From: Candidatus Harrisonbacteria bacterium | Lineage (GTDB): Bacteria; Patescibacteriota; Minisyncoccia; UBA6257; 02-FULL-45-10c | Assembly: GCA_016214655.1 (NCBI GenBank) | Contig: JACROC010000006.1 | Location: 21,377-85,376, forward strand | DNA: 64,000 bases | Reading direction: 5' to 3' | Shown: positions 34,309-49,091 of the stretch, piece after piece | How the letters are laid out: every line of letters starts with the position of its first letter | Position numbering within the stretch: the first letter of the stretch is position 1 | Notes under the pieces: generated by a model | Told to the model about the DNA's origin: nothing | What the model saw: only the letters and a program-made list of their open reading frames with translations | The model's database searches: none | Program-made: the position numbers and the translations under genes

Positions 34309-34382
34309 AAACTAGTTTTGTTTGCAGATTTGGATTGGATATAATAGAGTTAAAATTGCGTAAGGAAACGCAATTTTATTTT

Positions 34383-36590
34383 ATGAGCAATACTGCGTAC
34401 AAAAATTTCGCACTTTTTATAATAAAAGCCGGAGCTTTTATTATCCCATTGATACCGCTTTATATTGCCAATTCTCTATTTTTCCCATATATAACCGGCA
34501 AGGCGTTTATTTTCCGGATATTGGTGGAAATCATTTTTGCGGCTTGGGTATGGCTGGCGATTTTCTATCCGGAATATCGTCCGCAGAAGACTCCGCTTCT
34601 CATTGCCGCATCACTTTTTTTTGCCGCAGTCGTTTTAGCAACTATTTTGGGCATCAATCCAGCAAGGAGTTTTTGGTCCAATTATGAAAGGATGGAAGGG
34701 TTAGTCGCATATCTCCATCTCTTTGCCTATTTTTTGGTTTTAGGGCATGTATTTAAAAAATCCAATTGGATCATATTTTTCAACGCATTCGTATTGGCCG
34801 GCCTGGCGGAAAATATTTATGCGCTTATTCAGAAACTTGGTTATTTGCCTTCGCCGCAAGGCGGATTTAGGGTGGACGGGACAATCGGCAATCCGACGTA
34901 CCTTGCCGCTTATCTTATTTTTGTGATGGCATTCAGCGGCTGGTTATTTTTGCAGACTGCAAACAAATTCGCGAGATATTTTTACGGCGCCATGGCTGCG
35001 TTTTCTCTGTTAAGCATTTATTTCACCGCGACGCGGGGCGTGGCGGTGGCGTTGGTGGCTGGCGGTATTGCGGGAATCCTATTCTATTTGTCGTTAGTCC
35101 GGGCAATGGATTATAAGCAGCGATGGTATCGAAAATTGGCAATAGCCGGATTGGTGCTGATTTTGTTGGGCTCTTTCTCGGTTAAAATATTCAAGGATTC
35201 ATCGGTGGTCAAAAATAGCGAAGTACTTTCTCGGTTCGCCTCAATTTCTTTTTCTGAGGCGAGGACGAGGTTTACGATTTGGAAGATGGGTTTTGCCGGC
35301 GTGAAGGAAAAGCCGGTTCTTGGTTGGGGGCCGGAAAATTACCCGGTTATCTTTGCAAAGTTTTATAATCCAAGCCTCTATTCTCAAGAACCCTGGTTTG
35401 ACCGTTCCCATAATATTATTTTGGATTGGCTTATTAACGCCGGTATATTAGGTCTTTTTTCTTATCTGAGTATTTTAATAATTGCCGGTTATATAGTTTG
35501 GAAATCATATCGCCGTGGGCGGCTCCCGGCAGAAGAAACGATTTTACTGCTGGTACTTTTATTGGTTTATTTTTTGCAAAATCTTTTTGTTTTTGACCAA
35601 ATCGCAACGTACATTAGTTATTTCGCGGTTCTTGCCTATATTCATAATGTTGCGATTTCTGCCGAGATCCATAAGGAAAAGATTAAGCCGTCTATCCGGT
35701 CGTCAGTTGATGCAGCTAATTATGGACCAATCGCAGCCGGTTTTTTGTTGATTCCGCTGGTGCTGGTGGTTTATTTCATAAATGCCAGGCCATTTTTTGC
35801 TAATAAGAGCTTGCTTAATTCTTTAAAACTTCAAAACCTTCAGGATTTCGAAGGGGCCTTTAAGGGTTATGGACAGGCTTTATCGTATAATACGCTTGGC
35901 AATCAGGAAGTCCGGGAACAATTTGTCCGCTTTGCGGTTAATGCCGGAGCGCTTTCGGGAGTTAGTGCGGAATTTAAGAATAAAATTCTTAGCCGGGCCA
36001 TTGAAGAAGCTGAGGGGGGGGTAAAAGAAAATCTTTTGGATCCGCGGGCCTATCTTTTCTTGGGTTCTATCTACAGCCGGGTTGGGTTAATAGATCCTGC
36101 GATTCAGGTTTTGAACAGGGCGGTGGAATTGTCTCCCAGGAAACAGCAAATTTATTTTGAGTTAGCAGATGCTTATCTTAAAAAAGGAGAAAACGCCAAT
36201 GCGGTTAGGGCCCTGGAGAAATCTTTTAATGATGCTCCGGCCTTTGACCAAGCCAGAATGAATTTAGTGGCCGCTTATATTCTAAATAATCAGCAAGATA
36301 AAGCGGATCAGCTGCTTTTGGAGGCTTATAAAAAAGTTAATATTCCGGATCAGCTCCTGGTGCAGGTTTATTCCGTGACAAAAAATTATGAACGGCTGCT
36401 CGGCATTTGGCAGGCTTTTGCCGGTTCTGATCCCGCCAACGTTGAATACCGGAAGCGTTTGGCTGCCGCTTATCTCTTGGTTAATCAGAAAGATGCGGCC
36501 GTCAGCGAATTGGAAGAGGCCATCCGCCTCAGTCCCGGATTCAAGTCCGAAGGCGAAGCGTTAATTGCGGAAATTAGAAAAGGAAAATAA
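34383..36590 (+). CDS. Wzy_C (O-antigen ligase/polymerase-like) polytopic membrane protein fused to C-terminal TPR repeats
   Basis: About 12 TM helices with the Wzy_C-type loop ...YFTATRGVAVALVAGG... C-terminal ~280 aa are TPR-like (LGSIYSRVGLIDPAIQVLNRAVELSP..., AYLLVNQKDAAVSELEEAIRLSPG). ATG at 34383. Confidence 0.55.
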   Translation: MSNTAYKNFALFIIKAGAFIIPLIPLYIANSLFFPYITGKAFIFRILVEIIFAAWVWLAIFYPEYRPQKTPLLIAASLFFAAVVLATILGINPARSFWSNYERMEGLVAYLHLFAYFLVLGHVFKKSNWIIFFNAFVLAGLAENIYALIQKLGYLPSPQGGFRVDGTIGNPTYLAAYLIFVMAFSGWLFLQTANKFARYFYGAMAAFSLLSIYFTATRGVAVALVAGGIAGILFYLSLVRAMDYKQRWYRKLAIAGLVLILLGSFSVKIFKDSSVVKNSEVLSRFASISFSEARTRFTIWKMGFAGVKEKPVLGWGPENYPVIFAKFYNPSLYSQEPWFDRSHNIILDWLINAGILGLFSYLSILIIAGYIVWKSYRRGRLPAEETILLLVLLLVYFLQNLFVFDQIATYISYFAVLAYIHNVAISAEIHKEKIKPSIRSSVDAANYGPIAAGFLLIPLVLVVYFINARPFFANKSLLNSLKLQNLQDFEGAFKGYGQALSYNTLGNQEVREQFVRFAVNAGALSGVSAEFKNKILSRAIEEAEGGVKENLLDPRAYLFLGSIYSRVGLIDPAIQVLNRAVELSPRKQQIYFELADAYLKKGENANAVRALEKSFNDAPAFDQARMNLVAAYILNNQQDKADQLLLEAYKKVNIPDQLLVQVYSVTKNYERLLGIWQAFAGSDPANVEYRKRLAAAYLLVNQKDAAVSELEEAIRLSPGFKSEGEALIAEIRKGK

Positions 36591-38009
36591 TTCTTCTTTT
36601 TGGAATTTTAAAATCAGCAGATAGGCGATTATCGCGATCCCTAGGTTGAAGATTAAATTCAGGCCAAGGGTTTTAAGCAGGGCAGTTGTAATTGCCGTCA
36701 AAACTGCCGCTGTTAGCGGTTTTTTGATTTTATTCCAGATTTCAAATTCGCTTATCTCCTTTAGTTTTTTCCACATTAGAGAGTTGGCAATTATTTGGGT
36801 GAAGAGTGTGGCGGCCGCGCAGCCGGCGATGCCGAAAGATGGGATTAAAAGGAAATTAAAGAAAACATTGCCGATGGTTCCCACTAACGAAAAAGCAATG
36901 AATCTTTTCTGCTGGTCATGCGCCAGGATGGCGTTGTTGATAATTGCCGACGGGAAGACTATTAAAATGGTTCCCAGTAAAATTTGAAAAGAAGCAATGG
37001 AATTTTGGTAAGCCGGGCCAAAAAATAAATTAATAAGCTGATCGCCAAGAATAATTCCGCCAAAAGTTATCGGCAGAGCAGCCAAGAAAACTATCTTCAA
37101 AGAATTTTCCAGAATTTTTTTGAATTCTTCCCGGCTGGTTTTGGCTAATTTGGTAAATACGGGAAATAAGCTGACTGCAAATAGAGCCGGTAAGATATAT
37201 AAGAATTGAACTGGTCGCTGGGCAGCTGAATAAAATCCTAATTCTTCTGGGGTGCGCAGCCAGCCTAGCATGACGATGTCGGTATTTATCATAATTGCGC
37301 CAAGGGATCCGGCGAGCGCTATCGGCCAGGCCATTTCCAAAATTGGCTTGACGAGCTGGTAGTCAAAATGGGTCAGGAGACTGCTGAAGTAAGGTTTCAG
37401 CCGCCAGACGATTAATAAAAACCCGATTGCAGTGGCAATGGCATAGCTGATAGTCAGGTTGAGGCTGTTGGGATAGAACCATAAGAAAAGGAAGCCTAAG
37501 ACGGAAATGGCAACGTTGGTTAAAGTTTCATTTATGCCTTCCCACTGCATTTTTTCCTTGGCCCGGCCGAGGGTAAAACCGAAATTTCTCAAGCTGTCAA
37601 AAATCAAAATTAAAGCGGCAACCGGCAAAAGCGATTTTACCTCCTCGATTTTAGTGATAATCGGAGCGCCGAAGATTAGTAATACGGCACCGAGCATTAA
37701 AAGTACTGATTTTATGAAAAAGGCCGTGGAAAAATATTTGTTGCTGACCTCCGGGCTTTTGGCGGATTCTCTTGTTACAATGGCGCTTATGCCGATATCG
37801 GTAAAAATGGTTAAAAAGGCCACTAAGCTGGTGGCGTAAGAAAAAGCGCCCCAGCTGGCTGGTCCGAGAATTCTGGCGGCATAGATGATAATGGCGACCC
37901 TCGCCAGCCGCCCGAAAATCTGCCCGAAAAATAGCCAGAAAGTATTTTTAGCGATGGACTGGTGGAGATTTTGATTTTCGAAAAGCAGATTTTTGATTCG
38001 CGAAAACAT
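36561..38009 (-). CDS. Wzx-type flippase (MOP superfamily, Polysacc_synt)
   Basis: 482 aa, 12-14 TM, N-terminus ...LLFENQNLHQSIAKNTFWLFFGQIFGRLARVAIIIYAARILG... typical of Wzx/RfbX. 3' end overlaps the convergent upstream gene by about 30 nt. Confidence 0.65.
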   Translation of the reverse strand: MFSRIKNLLFENQNLHQSIAKNTFWLFFGQIFGRLARVAIIIYAARILGPASWGAFSYATSLVAFLTIFTDIGISAIVTRESAKSPEVSNKYFSTAFFIKSVLLMLGAVLLIFGAPIITKIEEVKSLLPVAALILIFDSLRNFGFTLGRAKEKMQWEGINETLTNVAISVLGFLFLWFYPNSLNLTISYAIATAIGFLLIVWRLKPYFSSLLTHFDYQLVKPILEMAWPIALAGSLGAIMINTDIVMLGWLRTPEELGFYSAAQRPVQFLYILPALFAVSLFPVFTKLAKTSREEFKKILENSLKIVFLAALPITFGGIILGDQLINLFFGPAYQNSIASFQILLGTILIVFPSAIINNAILAHDQQKRFIAFSLVGTIGNVFFNFLLIPSFGIAGCAAATLFTQIIANSLMWKKLKEISEFEIWNKIKKPLTAAVLTAITTALLKTLGLNLIFNLGIAIIAYLLILKFQKEELFSFSNFRN

Positions 38010-38056: not shown

Positions 38057-39397
38057 TTACGTGTGGTTAGTGATCAGAAATTTAATAGTCCTTAGAATAA
38101 TCAAAAAATCCAAAAGCGGGGAGTTATTTTTAATGTAGTAAATATCGTATTGCAGTTTCTGATAGGCATCTTCGGCCGAGGCGGCGTAGCGGTAGTTAAT
38201 CTGTGCCCAGCCGGTAATGCCCGGTTTGGTCAGGTGACGGAGATCATAATAGGGCAATTCCTTCCTTAATTTGACGACGAATTCCGGCCGCTCCGGCCTT
38301 GGGCCGACAAAAGACAGCTCGCCTTTCAGGATGTTGATTAACTGCGGCAATTCATCCAGATGCGACCGGCGCAAAATTTTCCCAATCCAAGTCGCCCGTT
38401 TATCTTGATGGTAGTTGGCCCATTGCGGCCCGGATTTTTCTGCATCAACATACATGGTGCGGAATTTATAGATGGTGAATTCTTTTTCGTGTTTGCCGAT
38501 TCTAGTTTGCCTGAAAATTACTGGGCCGGGAGAAGTAAATTTAATTAAAATTGCTATTAGAATTATCAGCGGTGATAAGATTATTCCCAGCAGTAAAGCG
38601 CCCACGATTTCCAGCGGCCCGCTTAATAATTCATAAATTTTATGTTTATTTACCAGATTTTCCAAAAACCAGACTTCTTCCAGTTCGGCTAGCGGGACTT
38701 TATGGAAAATTATTTCATGGAGCCGGGAAAGTTCCATCACTTCGATTCCTAGGACGATGGTTTTATAAATTAATTTGGCCGCCTGGCTGTCTTTTTTAAG
38801 ATGCGCCGGAATTACCATTGTATTGATATTATTAGCCATGATTATCTGCGCCAGATGTCCAAACTCTATGTCTTTAAGGCCTTCCTGCATCCAATATTTT
38901 ACCTGATAGCCGAGCTGCGGATTATTCTGGATATGTTCCATTATTTCTTGGGCGGTTTTATTTGATCCGACGATTAAAACCCGGTTTGCCGCCCCGGTTT
39001 TCCCGACGGCAAAGTTGTAAATTTGTCTCCAAAGATAATTTATACCTCCGAAGACCAAGAAGAAAATAACTAGATTAGTTTTCGGGGTGATGCCGAAATA
39101 GGGTATCAAGTAAAAAAAGATTGCCGTCAGCGCGACATTGAAAATCAGGGCATTCCAAAATACCTGTTCAAACTCCAATCCGTTTTTCAGGAATTTCAGG
39201 TCATAGAGGCCGGCAATGTAAGATACGGCTATCCAGATTCCGAAAATAATTGTGAACGGCTGTATGTGATAATTAATCAGTTCGGCGTAAAATAAATTCC
39301 CGTATCTTAGCCAAAGAGTTAAGATAAGGGCGGCGTAGAGGGTGAGAATGTCGCCGATTATTAAAGTAGTTTGTTTTAATCTGGACAAATTATTCAT
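38057..39397 (-). CDS. polyprenyl-phosphate hexose-1-phosphate transferase (WbaP/WcaJ/PglB-type initiating phosphoglycosyl transferase, Bac_transf)
   Basis: N-terminal TM bundle plus C-terminal SPGPVIFRQTRIGKHEKEFTIYKFRTM...ELPQLINILKGELSFVGPRPERPEFV, the Bac_transf catalytic signature. Confidence 0.85.
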   Translation of the reverse strand: MNNLSRLKQTTLIIGDILTLYAALILTLWLRYGNLFYAELINYHIQPFTIIFGIWIAVSYIAGLYDLKFLKNGLEFEQVFWNALIFNVALTAIFFYLIPYFGITPKTNLVIFFLVFGGINYLWRQIYNFAVGKTGAANRVLIVGSNKTAQEIMEHIQNNPQLGYQVKYWMQEGLKDIEFGHLAQIIMANNINTMVIPAHLKKDSQAAKLIYKTIVLGIEVMELSRLHEIIFHKVPLAELEEVWFLENLVNKHKIYELLSGPLEIVGALLLGIILSPLIILIAILIKFTSPGPVIFRQTRIGKHEKEFTIYKFRTMYVDAEKSGPQWANYHQDKRATWIGKILRRSHLDELPQLINILKGELSFVGPRPERPEFVVKLRKELPYYDLRHLTKPGITGWAQINYRYAASAEDAYQKLQYDIYYIKNNSPLLDFLIILRTIKFLITNHT

Positions 39398-39447: not shown

Positions 39448-40176
39448 ATGGATACTGAAAATCAGAAGCCACAAAGTAGTGGCAATAATCAAAATATATT
39501 TCTTCCAGCCAGCATTTTGATAGCCGCCGTTTTAATTTCCGGTTCGTTGATTTACAGCACCGGCAAGAAAGCCGCTCCAAGCCAGCTGGGCGCCAATACC
39601 GGGGAAGTGGTGGCCGGCGTAACGACTGGGAAGGAATTGGAGTTGACCAGCGAGGATGTAGTTTTGGGCGATTTGAATGCGCCGGTGACGGTGGTGGAAT
39701 ACGGAGATTTTCAGTGTCCTTTTTGCGGCCGTTTTTATTCCACAACCGAAAATCAAATCAGAGAAAATTATGTGAAATCCAATAAGGTTAAGTTTGTGTA
39801 TCGGCACTTCGCTTTCCTCGGACCGGAATCCCGGGTGGCGGCTAATGCGGCGGAATGCGCCAAGGATCAGGGAAAGTTTTGGGCGTATCATGATTCGCTG
39901 TACGATACAGAAATTAAAGATGGCGAAGAGCATAATGGAAATTTGAATCGCGATCTATTTTTATCTTTGGCCAAGGATCTTAGTCTGAATGAGAATGATT
40001 TTACCGCTTGTTTGGATAGTAATAAATATGATGAAAAAGTTCAGAAAGATTATGTAGGCGCTCAAGCGCTGGGAGTCCGGGCTACGCCGACCATTTTTGT
40101 TGATGACAAGAAAGTAGAGGGCGCATTGCCTTATGAACAATTTAAATTGCTGATTGATCAAGAATTATCAAAATAG
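39448..40176 (+). CDS. DsbA-like thiol:disulfide oxidoreductase (thioredoxin fold, membrane-anchored)
   Basis: N-terminal TM anchor. CxxC active site GDFQCPFCGRF. DsbA_FrnE-like length. Confidence 0.65.
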   Translation: MDTENQKPQSSGNNQNIFLPASILIAAVLISGSLIYSTGKKAAPSQLGANTGEVVAGVTTGKELELTSEDVVLGDLNAPVTVVEYGDFQCPFCGRFYSTTENQIRENYVKSNKVKFVYRHFAFLGPESRVAANAAECAKDQGKFWAYHDSLYDTEIKDGEEHNGNLNRDLFLSLAKDLSLNENDFTACLDSNKYDEKVQKDYVGAQALGVRATPTIFVDDKKVEGALPYEQFKLLIDQELSK

Positions 40177-40202
40177 TTTGTGGTATAATCTAATTAAGTA
40201 AT

Positions 40203-40442
40203 ATGGCGAAAAACATCACAATTTACTCCACTCCGACTTGCGTTTATTGCAAAATGGCGAAAGAATTTTTTAAGAAAAATAACGTGCAATATACGGAGCA
40301 CAATGTTGCCGAGGATGAAAAGGCCAGAGAAGAAATGGTGGAAAAATCTCATCAGCTGGGCGTGCCGGTGATTGATATTGACGGCGAGGTGCATGTCGGA
40401 TTCAACCGGTCAGAGTTGGAAAGGGCGTTAGGGTTGAAATAG
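40203..40442 (+). CDS. glutaredoxin / NrdH-like redoxin
   Basis: 79 aa, ITIYSTPTCVYCKMAKEFFKK (CxxC in the glutaredoxin context). Confidence 0.7.
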   Translation: MAKNITIYSTPTCVYCKMAKEFFKKNNVQYTEHNVAEDEKAREEMVEKSHQLGVPVIDIDGEVHVGFNRSELERALGLK

Positions 40443-40489
40443 CTTTTATTTAAAGCTGATTTACCAAGTTGTCGTAGAGAAACTACGGA

Positions 40490-40533
40490 GGCGTCAAAAG
40501 ATTAGTGTCCCGCCTTGCGGGACTTTTGACGCC
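40490..40533 (+). promoter_or_regulatory. GC-rich nested hairpin in the trxB leader
   Basis: ggcgtcaaaag ... cttttgacgcc outer stem enclosing gtcccgc-ctt-gcgggac inner stem. GC content is far above the local average. Confidence 0.35.
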
Positions 40534-40564
40534 GAGGCGTAGCGGGCTTGCGCCGCTGGAGCGC

Positions 40565-40580
40565 GAGAACCGCGGTTCTC
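40565..40580. promoter_or_regulatory. perfect 16-bp palindrome GAGAACCGCGGTTCTC about 33 bp upstream of the trxB start; candidate operator
   Basis: Exact inverted repeat read from the sequence (gagaaccg / cggttctc). Confidence 0.35.
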
Positions 40581-40612
40581 ATAGACAATTTGGTGAAGCA
40601 GCCTCTCTTTGT

Positions 40613-41539
40613 ATGTATGATTTAGTTATTGTGGGCGGCGGTCCTGGCGGTGTGGCAGCCGGCGTTTATGCGGCCAGGAAGAAACTTAATACTGTAGTTG
40701 TTGCGGAAAATTTCGGCGGCCAGTCGGCAGTCTCTGCCGACATCCAGAATTGGATCGGAACCAAATCCGTTTCCGGTTTTGATTTGGCGAAAAATCTGGA
40801 AGAGCATTTGCGCGCTCAGCAAGATTTGGAAATCGTTGACGGTGATCTCGTAACTAAAGTTGAAAAAGCCGACGGCGGTTTTAAAGTTTCTACCCGCGGC
40901 GGAAAATTATTGGATACTAAAACCATTTTGGTTGCTTCCGGCAGCCGGCACCGGCGGCTGGGTGTTCCCGGAGAAGACAGGTTAGATGGCAAAGGGGTTG
41001 TCTGGTGTTCCACCTGCGATGCGCCATTATTCGGCGGTAAAACGGTGGCGGTTGTTGGCGCCGGTAATGCCGGTTTGGAAGCGGTCAGGGATTCGCTGGC
41101 CTATGCTTCAAAAGTATATTTAATCGTGCGAGGTGAGGTTATCAAAGGAGATCCGCAGACCTTAGAGGAAATTAAAAAAGATTCCCGCCTGGAAATTATG
41201 TATTTGGCGGAGACGCAAGAAATACTTGGGGATAAATTTGTAACCGGACTAAAGTATTTGGATAAAAAAGACAATCAAGTTAAGGAATTAAAGGTTGACG
41301 GAGTTTTTGTGGAGATCGGCGCTGTGCCGAATGTTGAATTTCTCGGTGATTTAGTCAAAAAAGACCAGTACAATGCGATTATTGTTGATCACACTACCCA
41401 GCAGACATCCCAATTGGGGATTTGGGCTGCCGGTGACGTCACTTCGCTTCTATATAGGCAAAATAATATTTCCGCTGGCGACGCCGTTAAGGCAGTGCTG
41501 AACATTAACGATTATTTGAGCAAGATAAATAGAAGTTAG
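40613..41539 (+). CDS. trxB: thioredoxin-disulfide reductase
   Basis: MYDLVIVGGGPGGVAAGVYAARK (FAD GxGxxG), redox-active CSTCD (CxxC), second Rossmann VAVVGAGNAGLEAV. ATG at 40613. Confidence 0.8.
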   Translation: MYDLVIVGGGPGGVAAGVYAARKKLNTVVVAENFGGQSAVSADIQNWIGTKSVSGFDLAKNLEEHLRAQQDLEIVDGDLVTKVEKADGGFKVSTRGGKLLDTKTILVASGSRHRRLGVPGEDRLDGKGVVWCSTCDAPLFGGKTVAVVGAGNAGLEAVRDSLAYASKVYLIVRGEVIKGDPQTLEEIKKDSRLEIMYLAETQEILGDKFVTGLKYLDKKDNQVKELKVDGVFVEIGAVPNVEFLGDLVKKDQYNAIIVDHTTQQTSQLGIWAAGDVTSLLYRQNNISAGDAVKAVLNINDYLSKINRS

Positions 41540-41658: not shown

Positions 41659-42213
41659 ATGCGAATTGGTCCAATTCAAAAAAAGTTTTTAATTTTACTT
41701 TTCGGCCACTTATCTATGGGATTTTGTTATTCTTATGGGCAGCGCGCCAAGGTATTACGAGAAATGGATAAAGAATGGGAGCGAGTTAATGAAGAATCGC
41801 TGCGTCAGGCTATTCAAGGTCTTTATAAGAATAGATTGATAGATATAAAAGAATCGGCTGACGGCAAAGTTGTAATAAAACTTCAAGATCAGGGGAGGGA
41901 AAAAGTCTTAAGTTATAAATTAGATGAGATGGAAATTCCTAAAGCTAAAAGGTGGGACGGTAAATGGCGGATGGTCTTATTTGATATCCCCGATAATAAG
42001 AAGAAAGCCCGGGAGTCTTTGCGTCTTCATTTAAAGCGTTTGGGCTTTTATCAGTATCAGAAGAGTGTATTTATTTATCCATGCGAATGCAAAAACGAAA
42101 TCGATTTTTTGGTTGAGTTCCATAAAATTCGTCCGTATGTGCGGCAGCTGATCATTTCAGAAATGGATAACGACTTTCATTTGCGGAAAATTTTTCAAAA
42201 ATTGATTGCATAG
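41659..42213 (+). CDS. PaaX-like small winged-helix regulator-family protein (Cas2-like fold C-domain)
   Basis: C-terminal WDGKWRMVLFDIPDNKKKARESLRLHLKRLGFYQYQKSVFIYP resembles the PaaX C-domain / Cas2-like strand-helix motif. N-terminal half looks like a wHTH. Confidence 0.35.
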   Translation: MRIGPIQKKFLILLFGHLSMGFCYSYGQRAKVLREMDKEWERVNEESLRQAIQGLYKNRLIDIKESADGKVVIKLQDQGREKVLSYKLDEMEIPKAKRWDGKWRMVLFDIPDNKKKARESLRLHLKRLGFYQYQKSVFIYPCECKNEIDFLVEFHKIRPYVRQLIISEMDNDFHLRKIFQKLIA

Positions 42214-42275
42214 TTGTCGAAAAAAGAAGCAATCTAAAATACCCTACCCGTATTTTTAGGTGAAAACGATTTACT

Positions 42276-42307
42276 CCAGCTATATTTGCTATAGCAAATA
42301 TAGCTGG
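42276..42307. repeat. 32-bp perfect palindrome, copy 2
   Basis: CCAGCTATATTTGCTATAGCAAATATAGCTGG, followed by gttgttgacgttttttct. 45 bp upstream of ORF 42353. Confidence 0.8.
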
Positions 42308-42352
42308 GGTTGTTGACGTTTTTTCTGAGATTGATATAGAATATACACTAAT

Positions 42353-42850
42353 ATGTTCTCTAGAAATTTTTTTATTTTTTCCGGAGTTTTGATTTTGGTT
42401 GTGGTTTTGGCGGCGGGATCGCTTTTGTGGTGGCAGAGACACAATGATCCGGTTCGTCAGCAGCAAGCATTACTTGAAGATTATCAGCGGAAGGTGGAAG
42501 AAGCTTATAGCAATGATACCTACGGCGGCTCTACGCCGGAGGAAACCCTCCGCCTTTTTGTAGAGGCTCTTAAAAAAGAAGATATTGAACTTGCAAGTAA
42601 GTATTTTGCGTTAGATGATAATTTGGATAGGGGGAGATGGTATGGGGCGTTAAAAAAAGAAAAAGAGAACGGTAAGCTAAGTAATATAATTTCCGTAATA
42701 AATAGAGCTCAACCGGGGGATAATTCAGATAAAAATTTTGAGAAGCATTATTTTAATTTTATTGTCTATCGCGGAGATGGGGAAGTAGAGGCGGATATTA
42801 GTTTAGTCTTTAACCCAACTTCAAAAGTATGGAAAATAGAAAGCTTATAA
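42353..42850 (+). CDS. hypothetical membrane-anchored protein
   Basis: N-terminal TM (FIFSGVLILVVVLAAGSLLWW) then a ~140-aa soluble domain with no recognised motif. Confidence 0.3.
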   Translation: MFSRNFFIFSGVLILVVVLAAGSLLWWQRHNDPVRQQQALLEDYQRKVEEAYSNDTYGGSTPEETLRLFVEALKKEDIELASKYFALDDNLDRGRWYGALKKEKENGKLSNIISVINRAQPGDNSDKNFEKHYFNFIVYRGDGEVEADISLVFNPTSKVWKIESL

Positions 42851-45800
42851 AAATTTTTATCCCAGTTATGCTGGGATTTTTTAGTTATGCGAATTTGGCT
42901 CTTGCGTATGAGGTAGGCACGCACGAGTTTTTGACCAAGGAAGTAGTAGAATTTTACAATCAAAATTTTTCTGGCAATAAAATCTTGGATGAATATAAGC
43001 CCGCTATTATTAGCGGCGCCAATCACGAAGATGATAATCCGCGCTGGATGAATCATTTCTATGACCCAGTTTATAATCGCGGTTTAACAAAGATTCCCGG
43101 CAATTGGGTTAGTTCCAAAGATTGGGCGCATAATTCGGATCAGCAGATTTCCGCTTTATATAATCCAGTTTTAAATACAACTATTGCCGGACTTTTGGCG
43201 GTGACTAACCCCGGAGAATTGCGCAAAACCGATTTTACTTGGGAACGCGCCATTCGTGATTATTTAAGAGGCGACAAAGAAAGAGCTTTCCGCGGGTTGG
43301 GACAGATTCTGCATTTGATTGAGGATGCTTCGGTGCCGGATCATACTCGCAATGATCCGCATCCGGCCTTTGATCAAGAAGATTTTTTAGAAACTGGCAG
43401 CCCTTATGAACTTTGGACTGGTGATTTTAATCTGGATAATCCCGATAAAAATTTGTCGTTACGATTATCCAATAAAAAACCGATTGCCTTGGATGATTTA
43501 GATACCTATTTTGATTCCTTGGCGTCATATTCAAATAATAATTTTTATAGTAAAGATACGATTGGTGGCCAAGAATATAATTTACCGAAACCAGATTATT
43601 TATTTAAAGATAGACAACGTATTTACGCATTTAAAATAGATTTCGAATTTGGAGATTATCGGTTATTTGAAAAGATTGTTCCGGATATTTTATTAAAAAA
43701 TGAACTTGAGGCAGAGTTGAGGCCGATTGTATTGCAAGATTACTGGGATCGGCTTTCTGTAAAAGCGGTACAACATGGCGCCGGAGTTGTTGATTTGTTC
43801 TTTAAAGAAATTGAAAAAGCAAAAAACAACCCTAATTTTGTAACGGAAGAACCAAAGTCTTTATTAGCGCAAGTAGCGGATGCAATGCGCGGCTTATTTA
43901 CCAACATAACCGCGCTTTTTAAAGGAGAAGATGATTTGAAGTTGGTTGCAGAGATTTCGTTGGATAAAAATGAGAAGAGTGGTGAAGTTGTGGCTTTTGG
44001 TGATAACAGTGTTTTGGGTGGCGAAATTCCTAGTGGTTCCGAGCAAAATAAGATTGATAGGAATAATGGGATGAATACGGATAATGAGCCAGTTGAGTTG
44101 GACAGAAATTTTGTTGATGATCAAAATGAAGATGCGGCTGAAGCTGCTAATAGGAAGAATGAAGAAGTTGCTACTACCACTGCGGTGGTAACGAAAAATA
44201 ACACCAGCGTTTCAGAAAAACCAGTTACTGCGCCGGTTAAGAACTGTTCTTTTGCAACTGACAAAACTCCGAGCCACCAAAAACTATTAATTAATGAAGT
44301 CGCCTGGATGGGCGGGTTTTCCAGCGCTAATGACGAGTGGACGGAGCTTAAAAATATTTCCGGAGATGATTTAGATATTTCCAGTTGGCAGCTTTTGGAT
44401 AAAGATGAGCAGATCAAAATTGTATTTCCAGGCGGAGCTAAACTATCTAGCGGCGGATTCATGCTTTTGGAGAGAACCAATGACGACTCGGTTTCCGGGC
44501 TTGCGGCTAATTTAATTTATGCCGGGGCATTGTCTAATGCTAATGAGGGATTAAGACTTTTTGATCCGGATTGTAATTTAGTTGATGAGGTTTTAGCGGC
44601 GAGCGATTGGCCATCCGGAGATGCGGCTGCTCGGAAAACCATGGAGCGGGGAAGTGATTTAAGCTGGCATGCGTACAGCGGTGATGGCGAGAATTTTGGC
44701 GGAGCGCAGATTATGGGAACGCCAAAAAAAGAAAATAGTTCCCGTTATATGTCTGGCGGCGGAAATAGCGCGGCAACCGAGAATCAACAAGTTAGTCCGG
44801 CGCCGGCAACCCAGAAAATTTTAATTTCCGAGGTGCAGACTACCGGCGGCACCGGCCAGACTAACAATGAATTTATTGAACTATATAATCCGAATAATGC
44901 CGTATTTGATTTAAAAGGATACCGGTTGGTGAAACGAACTAAAACTGGTACTGCTGATACAACTATTAAATCATGGACAACTGATGCTTTTGTGCCAGCA
45001 AAAGGATTTTATCTTTGGGCGAATAGCAGTTACACCGGTATTGTGGTGACGCCGGATGCTACCACTACGGTAAGTATTGCTGATGATAACGGGATTGCCA
45101 TCCGTCTTGGCTCCGAGGACACCGGTACTATTATTGACAGCGTTGGCTGGGGAGAGGCGCAGAACGTTTTTGCGGAAGGAGCGGCATTCTTAACTAATAC
45201 CGGGGCTAACCAAAGTTTGGAAAGAAAAGCATTGCAGAATAATAGTTGTGTCTCGGCGCAATCGGGCGGAGAATTTTTAGGCAATGGCTGTGATGTGAAT
45301 AACAACCAGAATGATTTTGACCTCCGCGGTTCGCCGAATCCGCAGAGTAGCAAAAGTTTTATTGAGCCGCGCTCGGCTCCAAGCGCAGTCAGTAATTTTA
45401 ACGCCGAGTATGCATCGTCAACACTCGGCGTTTCGCTTAGTTGGAGCGCGTCGGCGGATTATTTAGGATCAACTTCTACTACTCAATACGTTTTAAGCTA
45501 TGCCACTTCTACCGGCACCGCTCTGAAAGAATTGGCCATTCTGACGGCGACTACCACTTACAAATTTACCACTGCGGAAGTTGGATTGAATTATGATTTC
45601 TTAATTTCGGCAAAAGACAAAGAGGGGTTGGCTTCTGACTCCAGTACCAAGACATTAAGCGTGCCGAGCCAGTTTACTAACTTTTATTTTTATAAAGACA
45701 CCCGTACTGCTTCCAGCACAAAATATCTGGCGGAGTTTTATTATAACAATTACCCGCTTATCCAGGATTTGTACTGGAGTCCGGCGGATAGTTCTTGGAA

Positions 45801-47046
45801 AATCTTAGTTTTTTATCTGAATAAAGAGGCGCCGAAAGAACTGGAATTGAATGCCGGTAATAATTGGCAACCAGGAAATTTAAGCGGGGTGTTGGATATA
45901 GTTTATGCCAATTGTGCCAGCGGAAATTCAAACAGATTTTCTTTGACTCTTCCGGATGTAGAATCGCAGTGCAATAGTGGCGGCGGAGTGGCTAATAATG
46001 CGTTTAAATTCAGTAATCTGGAAGATCCGCATATTTTACTGGAGCTAGCCACGACTACTGCCGGCATCACTTTCGCGGCTGATGATTTTATAACTGTTGG
46101 AGCTTATTCGTTATACGATGCAGGAGCCGGCGACCAGAAATTTAAATTATCAACTTTGGATCGTGATAAATATTATTTCAGTACCAGTACGCCGACTCAC
46201 CAGGCGCCAGCGATGCCGGAAAATTTGGAATTGAAAGTTAATTCTGACTCATCTCTTTTAAGAATTATCTGGGATAAAGGAACTCTAGACGGCGATACGT
46301 TGGATAATTTAATAACTTTTGAGATCAATTATTCTACTACCACTTTGGATGATGCCGGGTGGGGTGCGGTTCCGAATGCTAGCCAGGATCCGGGAGAGGG
46401 CAGTGAAATTAACGGCCGTCCGTTTACTAAAATTACAGTTGAGCCGGACAATACTTATAATATAGCTTTGAGAGCGAAAGATGATTTCGGTAATGTTTCT
46501 TCTGCGACTACCACGATTTATTTTATTCCGGAAATTTCACCACCATATGGAATGTCCAATATAGAGTGGGGTCATTTGAATAGTTCTTCTACCATTGAAA
46601 TCGGTTTTAATGCTAACGCCTATCCTTTTATGACCGCCAATAAAACTAGCGCTATTTTGTTCTTTTTAAATCAGCTTCCGCCAGCCGGTTATTCATTTTC
46701 TAATAATGCTGAGCGATGGACTATCGGCGGTTCAAACAGTGTTTTGAAGCTGCAATATAATACCTGCCAGAGCAATAACGACGGTTTGCTGGGCGGTTTG
46801 CTGATGCATAATGATTCCAGTTGTCCGAATGGCGGCAGCGGACTCAGGAAAAATTCGGTGCGGAAAGATCTGACTTCTGGACAAACCAATTTCACTACAA
46901 CGGTTGCCGGGGTGCTTACTAGCGGCGGGACTGAATCACATACTTTTAGCACTGGTGATTATCTGACCATGGGATTTTATGAGCGTAACGGCAGCACTTT
47001 TGAGGAAGTTTCCGTTTACAATAAAAAAATCTATTTTCAACCATAG
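42829..47046 (+). CDS. giant secreted protein: N-terminal Zn-dependent phospholipase C / P1-nuclease-superfamily domain, two lamin-tail (LTD) domains, and a long beta-rich Ser/Thr-rich C-terminal region
   Basis: Signal peptide. Mature N-terminus YEVGTHEF..., ANHEDDNPRWMNHFYDPVYN and ILHLIEDASVPDHTRND match the His/Asp zinc-ligand pattern of Zn-PLC (HFYDPD, LHYLGD...PMHAAN). Two LTD signatures LLINEVAWMGG...DEWTELKN and ILISEVQTTGG...NEFIELYNPNN...DLKGYRL. Confidence 0.55.
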   Translation: MENRKLIKIFIPVMLGFFSYANLALAYEVGTHEFLTKEVVEFYNQNFSGNKILDEYKPAIISGANHEDDNPRWMNHFYDPVYNRGLTKIPGNWVSSKDWAHNSDQQISALYNPVLNTTIAGLLAVTNPGELRKTDFTWERAIRDYLRGDKERAFRGLGQILHLIEDASVPDHTRNDPHPAFDQEDFLETGSPYELWTGDFNLDNPDKNLSLRLSNKKPIALDDLDTYFDSLASYSNNNFYSKDTIGGQEYNLPKPDYLFKDRQRIYAFKIDFEFGDYRLFEKIVPDILLKNELEAELRPIVLQDYWDRLSVKAVQHGAGVVDLFFKEIEKAKNNPNFVTEEPKSLLAQVADAMRGLFTNITALFKGEDDLKLVAEISLDKNEKSGEVVAFGDNSVLGGEIPSGSEQNKIDRNNGMNTDNEPVELDRNFVDDQNEDAAEAANRKNEEVATTTAVVTKNNTSVSEKPVTAPVKNCSFATDKTPSHQKLLINEVAWMGGFSSANDEWTELKNISGDDLDISSWQLLDKDEQIKIVFPGGAKLSSGGFMLLERTNDDSVSGLAANLIYAGALSNANEGLRLFDPDCNLVDEVLAASDWPSGDAAARKTMERGSDLSWHAYSGDGENFGGAQIMGTPKKENSSRYMSGGGNSAATENQQVSPAPATQKILISEVQTTGGTGQTNNEFIELYNPNNAVFDLKGYRLVKRTKTGTADTTIKSWTTDAFVPAKGFYLWANSSYTGIVVTPDATTTVSIADDNGIAIRLGSEDTGTIIDSVGWGEAQNVFAEGAAFLTNTGANQSLERKALQNNSCVSAQSGGEFLGNGCDVNNNQNDFDLRGSPNPQSSKSFIEPRSAPSAVSNFNAEYASSTLGVSLSWSASADYLGSTSTTQYVLSYATSTGTALKELAILTATTTYKFTTAEVGLNYDFLISAKDKEGLASDSSTKTLSVPSQFTNFYFYKDTRTASSTKYLAEFYYNNYPLIQDLYWSPADSSWKILVFYLNKEAPKELELNAGNNWQPGNLSGVLDIVYANCASGNSNRFSLTLPDVESQCNSGGGVANNAFKFSNLEDPHILLELATTTAGITFAADDFITVGAYSLYDAGAGDQKFKLSTLDRDKYYFSTSTPTHQAPAMPENLELKVNSDSSLLRIIWDKGTLDGDTLDNLITFEINYSTTTLDDAGWGAVPNASQDPGEGSEINGRPFTKITVEPDNTYNIALRAKDDFGNVSSATTTIYFIPEISPPYGMSNIEWGHLNSSSTIEIGFNANAYPFMTANKTSAILFFLNQLPPAGYSFSNNAERWTIGGSNSVLKLQYNTCQSNNDGLLGGLLMHNDSSCPNGGSGLRKNSVRKDLTSGQTNFTTTVAGVLTSGGTESHTFSTGDYLTMGFYERNGSTFEEVSVYNKKIYFQP

Positions 47047-47104
47047 ATATTCGTGATAATCTGAATTCAGCTCTGTAATTGAAAAAGGATAACCTTTGTT
47101 AGCG

Positions 47105-47365
47105 ATGGCTGCGCCGCTGATAAGTTTGATTTGTCTGATTTTCGGAATGACGCACCAGATAAAAATTATCATAGACAAAGGACATTGTGAGGAGCTGTCC
47201 TTGCCAAGGATTTTTTTGGGAACTTTTTCCGGAGTGGTCTGGGTGCTTTACGGACTGGAGCTTGGCAATAACTGGATGATTGCGCTGAATGTAGTCGGAA
47301 TTATTATGAATTTGGCTTTGATGTCGATTATCTTCCATTTGCGTAAAAAACTTCCACCTCAATAA
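47105..47365 (+). CDS. SemiSWEET-like (MtN3/PQ-loop) small sugar transporter
   Basis: 86 aa, 3 predicted TM. LIFGMTHQIKIIIDKGHCEELSLPRIFLGTFSGVVWVLYG parallels the SemiSWEET PQ-loop region (PQV.RV..TK...DIS...Y....G...W..YG) with HQ in place of PQ. Confidence 0.45.
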   Translation: MAAPLISLICLIFGMTHQIKIIIDKGHCEELSLPRIFLGTFSGVVWVLYGLELGNNWMIALNVVGIIMNLALMSIIFHLRKKLPPQ

Positions 47366-47495: not shown

Positions 47496-47521
47496 AAAAA
47501 GTAGCGTTTAACGCTACTTTT
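47496..47521. terminator. bidirectional terminator between convergent genes
   Basis: aaaaa-gtagcg-tttaa-cgctac-tttt, with the A-run and T-run flanking a 6-bp GC-containing stem. Overlaps the stop of the minus-strand gene. Confidence 0.5.
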
Positions 47522-48350
47522 AATTTGTCTCACCGCCTTCTTTTATTTCAGAGATTCTTTTAATGGTGCGGTCGTAGACTTCGTCGTTTTCTATTGCGAT
47601 TCCCAAGCCTTTTATTTTGAGATCTTTTTGCGGGCCATTTTTGAAGGCGCCTAGGCGGGTGCTGAGGAAATCTGTGAGCTTTTCCAGCATTCCAGAAACT
47701 TTCATTAATTTATGATGTTGGTTTGTCGGGATTCCGCGCCGGGAAAAAGCCAGATGCAGCATTTCATGGGCTACTGTCCCATAAAAATAGACCCCGCTTT
47801 CTTCATAGGATATATCATTATTGATGCGGCGATAATAATTTTCCCAATGATAAAGCGTTTCAGCGATTTCCTCCACATATATTTCCGCGCGATTCTGGTT
47901 CAAAAAAGCTCTGCCCAGAATTCCTTGTGCCGAATCGATTATTCGGTTTTTATCGCTTTTACATTGTTTCCGGTCTTTTTTATTTTGATACCGGCTGCAA
48001 TCTTCGCGTAGTATTCTGTACTCTGATCGCAGATAGTCTTGATAAAGATTATTTGCCGGTTGTCCGAGGACGGCCGATGCCCGGCTTTCTATTACCTGGC
48101 GATTTTTTTCGCAGCGCGTCTTCTTTCCATTTTCGTATTGTTCGCAATCGCGCATGAGAAGCTGATAATAAAAATCCTCCTTTAGAAAAACGATTTCTGG
48201 TAGTGGAGTATTAGGAGGTAGATCCGTCAGTTTCAGGATTTTTTTCCAGGTGTCTTGGACTAATACCGTATCCACTTGCTCTTCATCGCAGCTGGCTAAG
48301 GTTAAAATTGGCAGAAGCAGTATAATCCGCCATATTTTTTTAAGGTGCAC
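47520..48350 (-). CDS. putative lipoprotein zinc metallopeptidase (HExxH)
   Basis: Signal peptide plus lipobox ILTLASC. HExxH in VAHEMLHLAF. GTG start. Confidence 0.4.
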   Translation of the reverse strand: MHLKKIWRIILLLPILTLASCDEEQVDTVLVQDTWKKILKLTDLPPNTPLPEIVFLKEDFYYQLLMRDCEQYENGKKTRCEKNRQVIESRASAVLGQPANNLYQDYLRSEYRILREDCSRYQNKKDRKQCKSDKNRIIDSAQGILGRAFLNQNRAEIYVEEIAETLYHWENYYRRINNDISYEESGVYFYGTVAHEMLHLAFSRRGIPTNQHHKLMKVSGMLEKLTDFLSTRLGAFKNGPQKDLKIKGLGIAIENDEVYDRTIKRISEIKEGGETN

Positions 48351-48461: not shown

Positions 48462-49091
48462 TTACCAGCAATCTGACCAGTGGCCGTATTCGGTGTCGGC
48501 GTGAATATTTGGTGGAAGTTTGGAGGAAGATTTATTTTTTCCTTCCGTCTTTTCATCTTTATAAATGCCATAGTCCAAAAACTGGAGGGAAAGATATTTT
48601 GCTAAGCCGTCATGATGGAGTTTGAAATGGTCGCTGATAACGTCGATAACTTTGGATAAATATTGGCGATCCCGCATGATTCTATGCTGTTGTGTGGTCT
48701 CCTCGCGGACGTGGATTGCGTAGTGGAGCATTTCGTGGGCAACCGTGTTATAAAGCAATGCCTCGGCCTCATAATAGGATATGTCGTATCCGTATGCGGC
48801 ACCGTATTTGCCATATCGATCGCGGGAATTCCAAATATATTCCATTAGTTGGCCGATATAGATTTCTGCTTTGCGGCCATTCCAATAATATCGTCCATGG
48901 GCTTTTTCACCCATAACATCATTGCCATTAATGAATTCAATTACCGGTTTTGGCGTGTCCGGCGGCAATTCAGCAATTTTCATGACCTCCTGCCAGATGT
49001 GATCGATTAGCTGCTGATCAATTTCTTTCTCCTTGCAGTTTGCCCAAGCCAGGAGCGGAATAATCGGGAGTAGCCGTATTAGTTTTTTCAA
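48462..49091 (-). CDS. putative secreted zinc metallopeptidase (HExxH), paralog of the gene downstream on the same strand
   Basis: Signal peptide. VAHEMLHYAIH. Shares ELPPDTP / ELPPNTP and ...YNTVAHEMLH... blocks with ORF 47520-48350. TTG start. Confidence 0.4.
   Translation of the reverse strand: MKKLIRLLPIIPLLAWANCKEKEIDQQLIDHIWQEVMKIAELPPDTPKPVIEFINGNDVMGEKAHGRYYWNGRKAEIYIGQLMEYIWNSRDRYGKYGAAYGYDISYYEAEALLYNTVAHEMLHYAIHVREETTQQHRIMRDRQYLSKVIDVISDHFKLHHDGLAKYLSLQFLDYGIYKDEKTEGKNKSSSKLPPNIHADTEYGHWSDCW

Follow-up and report, generated by a model that had tools for sequence, protein, structure and literature searches.

A probable two-gene module of Patescibacteria pairing a secreted zinc phospholipase C-like protein with a predicted membrane-anchored NTF2-like partner

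We examined a pair of overlapping genes in a 64,000-nucleotide stretch of Candidatus Harrisonbacteria DNA, hereafter the window, and propose that they encode a two-gene module in which a secreted enzyme resembling zinc-dependent phospholipases C (Zn-PLCs) and an outward-facing, membrane-anchored partner would serve the cleavage of phospholipids. We assign this reading a probability of about 0.5. The module is conserved across the Patescibacteria, mainly in the Paceibacteria, and its two genes are probably translationally coupled. The enzyme family comprises about 7,300 cluster representatives with at least 519 matches among GTDB species representatives and, among the relatives examined, it is confined to the Patescibacteria. 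Its members are either unannotated or labelled only as "lamin tail domain-containing", and no description of the family or of the gene pair was found in a literature search that excluded most subscription journals.

The enzyme is encoded at 42829..47046 on the forward strand, where an ATG opens a reading frame of 1405 codons. Its sequence exactly matches MBI4992230.1 of Candidatus Harrisonbacteria, which NCBI names only "lamin tail domain-containing protein". The initial annotation had described a secreted 1405-residue protein at this position that combines a PLC/P1-nuclease-type zinc domain with lamin-tail domains (LTDs); our analysis confirmed that observation and supports the interpretation. 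A signal peptide is followed by an all-alpha domain, two LTDs, a weak FN3-like module and 468 residues without matches. The hydrophobic signal peptide spans residues 1-26 (42829..42906, +) and ends in a conserved (V/A)-(F/L)-A|Y site, recognized at the sequence level, at which signal peptidase I is predicted to cleave between ALA and Y27. The signal-peptide prediction proposed earlier is supported by conservation: among 58 homologues, 56 have A, S or G at position -1, 54 have V, A, S, T or I at -3, and 56 have Tyr at +1. As in Zn-PLCs, the predicted cleavage would free an N-terminal residue that bears a metal ligand. There is no lipobox Cys in the signal peptide.

The Zn-PLC-like catalytic domain (residues 27-335; 42907..43833, +) has the all-alpha PLC fold. 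A beta insertion of three strands, at residues 257-283, is specific to the family. Ligands were compared through residue-level profile alignments to the Bacillus cereus enzyme PLC-Bc (1ah7) and to P1 nuclease (1ak0). Seven of the nine zinc ligands of PLC-Bc (W1 N/O, H14, D55, H69, H118, D122, H128, H142 and E146) align with H32, D68, H76, H162, D166, H172 and E194, all of which are invariant or nearly so. Trp1 corresponds to Tyr27 at the predicted signal-peptidase site, and His142 aligns with Gly190. As a guess, the invariant H178 may stand in for the missing His142 ligand; residues 183-187 of the predicted model have pLDDT values below 50. With Y27 (through its N-terminus) and H178 added to the seven aligned residues, there are nine candidate metal-ligand positions, of which eight vary little or not at all across at least 94 sequences drawn from very divergent lineages, with overall identity down to about 30%. 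The domain alignment has about 19 invariant columns; R72, W99, Q106, R174 and D176 are further invariant residues. The zinc motif quoted in the initial annotation is present, and in 58 homologues its key residues (Y27, H32, D68, H76-F-Y-D79-P, H162-L-I-E-D166 and P-D-H172) show little or no variation. That ligand string held up to H172 and is incomplete beyond it, as it omitted the aligned and invariant E194, and the canonical last His is absent (G190).

A search of the N-terminal domain as a single sequence against PDB sequences was rejected since it returned chance matches to designed helical proteins only, and a family profile was therefore required. The Zn-PLC model PF00882 scored 13.8 bits (E 0.056) against residues 1-380, below its gathering cutoff of 26.8, and gave no match at E<=1 on the full-length enzyme. 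It matched 20 of 58 relatives at E<=0.01, the best at 7.9e-6. The S1/P1 nuclease model PF02265 matched neither the enzyme nor any of these 58 relatives, and the hhalign comparison of the family with 1ak0 gave a probability of 3.6% (E 0.012, 21 columns). On these grounds we rejected membership in the S1/P1 nucleases at the family level and kept nuclease activity as a functional rival; the enzyme does share with them the fold and an N-terminal aromatic-x4-His arrangement. Of the HMM searches suggested by the initial annotation, PF00882 stayed sub-threshold, PF02265 was silent and the LTD model PF00932 matched. The sub-threshold PF00882 score, the replacement of His142 by Gly190 and an N-terminal Tyr instead of Trp all speak against a Zn-PLC assignment.

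Between the catalytic domain and the LTDs lies a low-complexity linker (residues 336-480; 43834..44268, +) rich in Asn, Ala, Val, Glu and Asp. The predicted model has pLDDT values of 51-73 beyond residue 340. In some relatives this position holds a Staphylococcal-nuclease domain, as at residues 445-549 of P0353; it occurs in 8 of 346 family sequences (about 2%). The two LTDs named in the initial annotation are secure. Scanned separately against PF00932 (gathering cutoff 34.3 bits), residues 481-588 (44269..44592, +) scored 40.7 bits (E 3.3e-10) and residues 658-775 (44800..45153, +) scored 48.8 bits (E 1e-12), and the model gave E 8.4e-23 on the whole enzyme. Extracellular nucleases such as ExeM (PMC6085458) are the best-known carriers of LTDs. 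This nuclease association, the occasional Staphylococcal-nuclease domain and the P1-nuclease-like Y27-x4-H32 spacing are points against a PLC reading.

The FN3-like module (residues 852-937; 45382..45639, +) scored 22.1 bits (E 1.7e-4) with PF00041, under the cutoff of 25, and a profile of nine C-terminal sequences matched the FnIII domain of chitinase A1 (1k85) at E 0.0014. Residues 938-1405 with the stop codon (45640..47046, +) are rich in Ser, Thr and Asn; neither Pfam, scanned with six separate pieces, nor the nine-sequence profile against PDB returned a family or structure match for them. The C-terminal region has only 8 homologues and no internal repeats, and the enzyme C-terminus has neither a transmembrane segment nor a sortase motif. 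Three close Cys pairs (807/821, 1029/1048 and 1313/1332) occur in the extracellular part, the last two within residues 938-1405. A Ser/Thr/Asn-rich region after the LTDs had been noted earlier; it is present, with S+T+N near 29%, and its length is about 555 residues (851-1405) rather than about 700. In relatives, the tail is a right-handed beta-helix of carbohydrate-binding type in 14 of 36 cases.

The small upstream gene (42353..42850, +) encodes a protein of 165 residues (MBI4992229.1, "hypothetical"). It is predicted to have an N-terminal transmembrane helix at about residues 4-30, a helical stalk at 33-54 and an extracytoplasmic alpha+beta domain at about 55-165 with the NTF2-like cone fold. 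Pfam and NCBIfam gave no match to a described family such as DUF4878 or SnoaL, and DUF4878 touched only 5 of 46 partner relatives at E>=0.002. The partner alignment has a mean column identity of 42% and an invariant motif, DTYGG-TPEETL-F-AL...LASKYF...VWK. The two reading frames overlap by 22 nt (42829..42850, +), such that the end of the partner, ...VWKIESL*, is read in the other frame as the enzyme N-terminus MENRKLI. About 50 of the 85 genome loci and 45 of the 72 metagenome loci share this overlap (a distance of -21 in envelope coordinates in the latter). The partner lies directly upstream of the enzyme in all 85 enzyme-seeded loci, and the enzyme directly follows in 72 of 74 partner-seeded loci. 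The suggestion that the overlapping, membrane-anchored product is a partner is thereby upheld: the upstream gene is a genuine partner, for which we infer a role below.

The order DsbA-Grx-TrxR-PaaX...SpoU-DUF192-PCC is common to the window and the close relative L001 only, whereas in the distant loci L003-L005 the neighbours are unrelated and only the two genes are shared. About 38 kb just upstream in the window serve to make wall glycopolymers and encode, among others, three TagF-like glycerophosphotransferase paralogues as well as DegT, a 2-epimerase, Wzy_C, a flippase and a sugar transferase. The window contains no tRNA genes, and no paralogue of either protein nor further LTD elsewhere. 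A promoter-like site, TTGACG-18 nt-TAGAAT (42313..42342, +), ends about 10 nt before the partner ATG; it was found by consensus only and is a weak candidate, since the 14 such sites in the region do not surpass the mean of 14.4 in shuffled controls.

We propose that the first gene would give a bitopic membrane protein with its NTF2-like domain facing outward and the second a large secreted enzyme. Signal peptidase would remove residues 1-26 and expose Tyr27, whose amino group and carbonyl may, with H32, D68, H76, H162, D166, H172, E194 and probably H178, hold a centre of two or three zinc ions of the kind typical for bacterial Zn-PLCs. The enzyme would then cleave a phosphodiester bond, most likely the glycerol-phosphate bond of phospholipids in membrane debris or in the membrane of a host or neighbouring cell, yielding diacylglycerol and a phosphorylated head group. 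The role of the LTDs and the variable beta-rich tail could be to place the catalytic head on a surface. Because removal of the signal peptide leaves the enzyme without an anchor, the partner most likely docks or restrains it at the surface of the producer. The purpose might be acquisition of nutrients or lipids, or attack on the host envelope. A bolder version, which we regard as quite unlikely, makes the pair a device by which Patescibacteria as a lineage harvest lipids: the LTDs and tail would hold the PLC-like head at the contact zone with a host or neighbour, the head would strip phospholipid head groups, and the NTF2-like cone, a fold that typically holds hydrophobic ligands, would take up diacylglycerol for the membrane of the symbiont. 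If true, this would supply lipids that Patescibacteria cannot synthesize. A point against the phospholipid reading is that the invariant R72 and R174 are absent from PLC-Bc and could mean an anionic, non-lipid substrate.

One alternative, which we consider unlikely, places the enzyme among the extracellular nucleases or nucleotidases of this zinc superfamily. It would act on environmental or host DNA or RNA for nucleotide salvage, with LTDs that aid binding to nucleic acids or cell surfaces as in ExeM-type nucleases. A phosphodiesterase acting on non-lipid polymers of glycerol phosphate or sugar phosphate, such as teichoic-acid-like wall polymers of producer or host, could remodel the envelope or breach it at a contact site. 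The glycerol-O-P bond cut by Zn-PLCs is of the same chemical type as that in poly(glycerol-phosphate), the two invariant arginines would fit a polyanionic substrate, carbohydrate-binding-type beta-helices occur among the tails, and the wall glycopolymer cluster with its TagF-like paralogues lies next to the module. However, that cluster adjoins the module only in the window and in L001, and we know of no characterized member of the Zn-PLC/nuclease superfamily that acts on teichoic acids; this alternative seems distinctly improbable.

It is also doubtful that the pair is an antibacterial toxin-immunity module, in which the PLC-like enzyme hits the membranes of competitors or hosts while its active site is blocked at the producer membrane by the NTF2-like partner. 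The genes lie strictly next to each other in the same orientation, the small one being translated first, and the predicted partner ectodomain shares its side of the membrane with the enzyme. NTF2-like folds occur in some immunity proteins of polymorphic toxin systems, and immunity genes are typically found beside those for phospholipase effectors; in typical pairs, however, the immunity gene usually follows the toxin gene. Both proteins are also conserved for an arms-race pair, as judged from the column identity of the partner and the invariant catalytic columns, no secretion-system, Rhs, CDI, PAAR or polymorphic-toxin context was found in the five neighbourhoods examined, and the spread over GTDB species representatives shows a lineage-wide, largely single-locus module that behaves like a housekeeping one. 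The long multi-domain architecture, with LTD, FN3, PKD, Ig and beta-helix modules in the enzyme and its relatives, might instead suggest a mainly structural surface protein or adhesin with a catalytically dead head, as might the sub-threshold domain score and the missing His142. Ligand conservation of the depth seen here would not be expected of a dead site, and this reading is highly improbable.

A large part of bacterial diversity belongs to the Patescibacteria (CPR), and the gene pair described here could bear on how these tiny, probably symbiotic bacteria obtain lipids or nucleotides that they cannot make. The analysis defines a large family of putative zinc-phosphodiesterase-like proteins that are secreted, show what looks like an intact active site and have a near-obligate membrane partner. 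As a concrete candidate for a role in envelope attack or nutrient harvest, it is open to expression and assay. The family appears to depart from the classic Zn-PLC site, having Tyr1 for Trp1 and one ligand moved or lost, and the gene pair is a clean example of a conserved 22-nt overlap that constrains the termini of both proteins.

The closest known systems are the Zn-PLCs (PF00882), for which we considered B. cereus PC-PLC (1AH7), the N-domain of the alpha-toxins of C. perfringens and C. absonum (1OLP, 2WXU) and L. monocytogenes PlcB (8CQM). All characterized members have Trp at the mature N-terminus, whereas the enzyme has Tyr. Its first His lies 5 residues from the N-terminus compared to 13 in PLC-Bc, an invariant H-T-R-N-D-x-H-P loop takes the place of the His142 region, and the invariant residues and beta insertion described above are additions. 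Zn-PLCs are standalone or carry a PLAT-like C-domain, whereas the enzyme head continues into LTDs and a long beta-rich tail and its family almost always occurs together with an NTF2-like membrane protein. In comparison with the S1/P1 nucleases (PF02265), represented by P1 nuclease (1AK0), S1 nuclease (5FB9), plant ENDO2 (3W52) and SmNuc1 (8QJL), structural scores were lower than those against the PLCs and the spacing of ligands in the second half differs. The Y27-x4-H32 spacing nevertheless equals W1-x4-H6 of P1 nuclease, unlike W1-x12-H14 of PLC-Bc.

VirB8 is an example of a bitopic NTF2-like protein, and DUF4878-type lipoproteins are likewise extracytoplasmic and NTF2-like. The partner differs from both in its lack of a family-level sequence match and in its own invariant motif, and its near-constant coupling to a PLC-like gene is not known for either the DUF4878-type or the VirB8 family. 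Like Shewanella ExeM (NF033680), the enzyme is a secreted multi-domain protein with LTD modules and, on our reading of its sequence, a putative phosphoesterase; ExeM has an SNase/OB-type domain (PMC6085458), and rare relatives of the enzyme add one too. The catalytic domains are unrelated, being Zn-PLC-like in the enzyme and an EEP nuclease in ExeM, and the ExeM model matches the enzyme through an LTD only (22 bits against a cutoff of 1300). Unlike ExeM, the enzyme carries its LTDs C-terminal to the catalytic domain and has no C-terminal hydrophobic anchor.

The open reading frame at positions 42829–47046 on the plus strand starts with ATG and encodes 1405 aa, exactly as the initial annotation had placed it. 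An exact-sequence look-up identified the product as NCBI MBI4992230.1, a "lamin tail domain-containing protein" encoded on a 103-kb contig of a Candidatus Harrisonbacteria MAG, and only its lamin-tail domains (LTDs) are recognised in the public annotation. A reduced, possibly episymbiotic bacterium had been guessed, and this fits, since Harrisonbacteria lie within the Paceibacteria/Parcubacteria part of the Patescibacteria. Secretion, also proposed at the outset, is predicted from a signal peptide at residues 1–26 whose cleavage-site pattern is kept across 58 homologues, with Ala, Ser or Gly at position −1 in 56, a small or aliphatic residue at −3 in 54 and Tyr at +1 in 56. The sequence contains no lipobox Cys, no C-terminal transmembrane (TM) segment and no sortase motif. 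The signal peptide is followed by an all-alpha domain (the head, residues 27 to ~335), in which a three-stranded beta insertion (residues 257–283) is modelled confidently, and by a linker rich in Asn and acidic residues with low model confidence (336–480). The two LTDs described initially (residues 481–588 and 658–775) scored 40.7 and 48.8 bits when scanned alone, both above the Pfam gathering cutoff of 34.3. The region beyond the LTDs, put at ~700 aa, is in fact about 555 aa long. It includes an FN3-like module (852–937; 22.1 bits, slightly under the Pfam cutoff of 25), and a small C-terminal profile of the enzyme matched the FnIII domain of chitinase A1 (E 0.0014). For residues 938–1405, neither Pfam nor PDB gave a match, and only eight homologues turned up among 5.8 billion clusters. 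An extracytoplasmic protein agrees with the presence of three Cys pairs whose members lie close together (807/821, 1029/1048 and 1313/1332).

The head had been assigned to the Zn-dependent phospholipase C (PLC) or S1-P1 nuclease enzymes. With the single sequence, PF00882 stayed below its cutoff of 26.8 bits (13.8 bits, E 0.056), PF02265 gave no match in the Pfam scan and a PDB search returned noise only. The family profile, however, matched the B. cereus phospholipase C (PLC-Bc, 1AH7) in PDB at E 8.5e-4, and hhalign aligned the head to PLC-Bc with a probability of 92–93% (E 2.4e-7 to 6.8e-7). Among 58 relatives, 20 matched PF00882 at E ≤ 0.01 and none matched PF02265. Because of this profile evidence, we assign the head to the Zn-PLC/P1-nuclease superfamily, closer to the PLC branch, where it forms a separate subfamily, one for the most part missed by current Pfam models. 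A word-limited search yielded 141 homologues, nearly all of them "hypothetical proteins" of Patescibacteria. When 1.84 billion cluster representatives were scanned in full with HMMER, the family profile matched 7,315 of them at E ≤ 1e-3, of which 1,079 reached E ≤ 1e-30, and the head always begins at the N-terminus among the matches listed. A few members from NCBI MAG records (P0014, P0072 and P0081) are labelled Gallionella, Legionellaceae or Omnitrophota; since the family is otherwise exclusively found in Patescibacteria, these are probably mis-binned contigs.

The putative metal site was compared by residue-level alignment with 1AH7 and with P1 nuclease (1AK0), using reference sequences identical to the PDB entries. 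A confident local alignment pairs H162, D166, H172 and E194 with H118, D122, H128 and E146 of PLC-Bc and reproduces the common HFYDP motif that contains H69. A low-confidence but self-consistent global alignment adds H32=H14, D68=D55 and H76=H69 and also pairs the last helices. Across two independent alignments, 94 sequences in total, each of these seven residues is either invariant or conserved to at least 96%. The zinc-ligand pattern of the initial annotation is present in the sequence. Two positions depart from the canonical site. One is His142 of PLC-Bc, which aligns with Gly190; the family has instead an invariant loop, P-D-H172-T-R174-N-D176-x-H178-P, in which H178 or D176 might fill the third metal site. 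The other is the N-terminal ligand residue: every characterised member, to our knowledge, has Trp1, whereas here it would be Tyr27. The first His follows Tyr27 at a distance of five residues, a spacing like that of P1 nuclease and unlike that of PLC-Bc. The invariant R72, W99, Q106 and R174 have no counterpart in PLC-Bc.

A small TM-anchored ORF overlapping the enzyme gene had been suggested as a possible partner, and the genetic link proved strong in both directions. This ORF (42353–42850, plus strand; MBI4992229.1, "hypothetical protein HZB99_03355") encodes a 165-aa NTF2-like protein. When loci were seeded with the enzyme domain, all 85 (5 from contig look-ups and 80 GTDB species representatives) had a homologue of the partner directly upstream on the same strand. 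Conversely, the enzyme gene directly follows the partner in 72 of 74 testable partner-seeded metagenome loci, the two exceptions being rearranged. About 60% of loci preserve an identical 22-nt frame overlap (42829–42850 in the window); gene overlaps are usually 1 or 4 nt. The invariant C-terminus of the partner, VWKIESL*, and the conserved MENRK N-terminus of the enzyme are the same DNA in two frames, which explains why the MENRK start of the signal peptide is conserved across very divergent bacteria (alignments A1 and A3). No Shine-Dalgarno-like motif was found before the enzyme ATG, and no enzyme–partner gene fusions were seen.

Complete ORFs of the family in genome loci have a median length of 1,399 aa (range 587–1,937). 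Given the domain content of 36 full-length relatives, the conserved core is a signal peptide, the PLC-like head and LTDs (in 35), with a variable tail that contains a right-handed beta-helix in 14, FN3 in five and PKD or Ig-like domains in a few. A Staphylococcal-nuclease domain (PF00565) is inserted between head and LTDs in 8 of 346 family sequences. Carriers are P0353 (E 1.8e-21), P0309, P0366, P0354 and P0346, and the proteins at loci L029, L055 and L061; these are predicted to be two-enzyme secreted proteins. In the close relative L001 (6001–9947), as in L002, the enzyme gene falls into two ORFs with a 28-nt overlap, a PLC-like one of 355 aa and one of 968 aa with the LTDs. This reflects either a frameshift or assembly error or a genuine split at the linker.

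The wider gene neighbourhood is conserved in L001 only. A trio encoding a TM-anchored DsbA-like thioredoxin-fold protein, a glutaredoxin and a thioredoxin-reductase-like flavoprotein lies upstream of the enzyme–partner module in both the window (39448–41539, plus strand) and L001 (2557–4477); it may bear on how disulfides form in the secreted enzyme with its Cys pairs. An inverted repeat of 19+19 nt without spacer (42273–42310, 95% complementary) lies between a PaaX_M/Cas2-like regulator gene (41659–42213) and a promoter-like site before the partner gene; a terminator hairpin and an operator for the PaaX-like protein are both conceivable. The syntenic place in L001 (5304–5349) is taken by a different palindrome, long and perfect. 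Directly after the enzyme gene is an 89-aa SemiSWEET-type sugar transporter (47096–47365, plus strand; PF03083, E 6.9e-10). Immediately downstream on the minus strand are two homologous ORFs (47520–48350, which has no Pfam match, and 48462–49091) with lipoprotein-like signals (LTLASC and LAWANC) and a common HExxH metalloprotease-type motif, TVAHEMLH. A large cell-wall glycopolymer cluster of about 38 kb (~800–39400) carries three paralogous TagF-like CDP-glycerol glycerophosphotransferases (starting at 7422, 10179 and 14488), a DegT aminotransferase, a UDP-GlcNAc 2-epimerase, a GT9 glycosyltransferase, a Wzy_C+TPR protein (34335–36590), a flippase (36561–38009, minus strand) and a sugar transferase (38057–39397, minus strand), and suggests that this CPR bacterium has teichoic-acid-like polymers. 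All 2-kb bins of the window show positive GC skew, the cumulative skew climbs monotonically, and long ORFs are mostly on the plus strand, as would fit a window situated entirely on the leading strand of one replichore. No tRNA genes were found in the 64 kb.

We regard the fold, the conserved ligand set and the gene pairing as established (about 0.9). In the reading with most support, signal-peptide cleavage would expose Tyr27 and only then complete the active site of a secreted zinc phosphodiesterase, co-produced with a membrane-anchored NTF2-like partner facing the same compartment. The role we favour for the partner is to dock or restrain the enzyme, which otherwise has no anchor. It may instead carry hydrophobic products. 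That it is an inhibitor or immunity protein seems less likely. Both proteins are highly conserved and no delivery-system context was seen in five neighbourhoods, which argues mildly against a classic toxin–immunity arms race.

As for the substrate, phospholipid is favoured because the head is closer kin to PLCs, and we give it roughly an even chance. The P1-like spacing of the N-terminal ligand, the Arg after the first Asp ligand, the rare Staphylococcal-nuclease fusions and the link between LTDs and nucleases such as ExeM (PMC6085458) lend support to nucleic acid or nucleotides, a reading we find less likely. Glycerol-phosphate wall polymers are suggested by the 38-kb cluster with its three TagF-like genes in the same window, but distant loci do not share this linkage; such a substrate appears quite improbable.

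No paper describing the enzyme family or the enzyme–partner pair was found in the searchable full-text literature. Reviews call the mechanisms of lipid uptake and breakdown in Patescibacteria unidentified and propose phospholipases only generically as damaging host envelopes (PMC11665869; PMC7242380; PMC12455944). For this recognised question the enzyme, whose function is inferred, offers a concrete candidate that is widely conserved and can be assayed. It is not a new kind of enzyme; it belongs to a well-known superfamily and represents a large, distinct subfamily within it, marked by a variant metal site, a fixed LTD fusion and a near-obligate NTF2-like partner.
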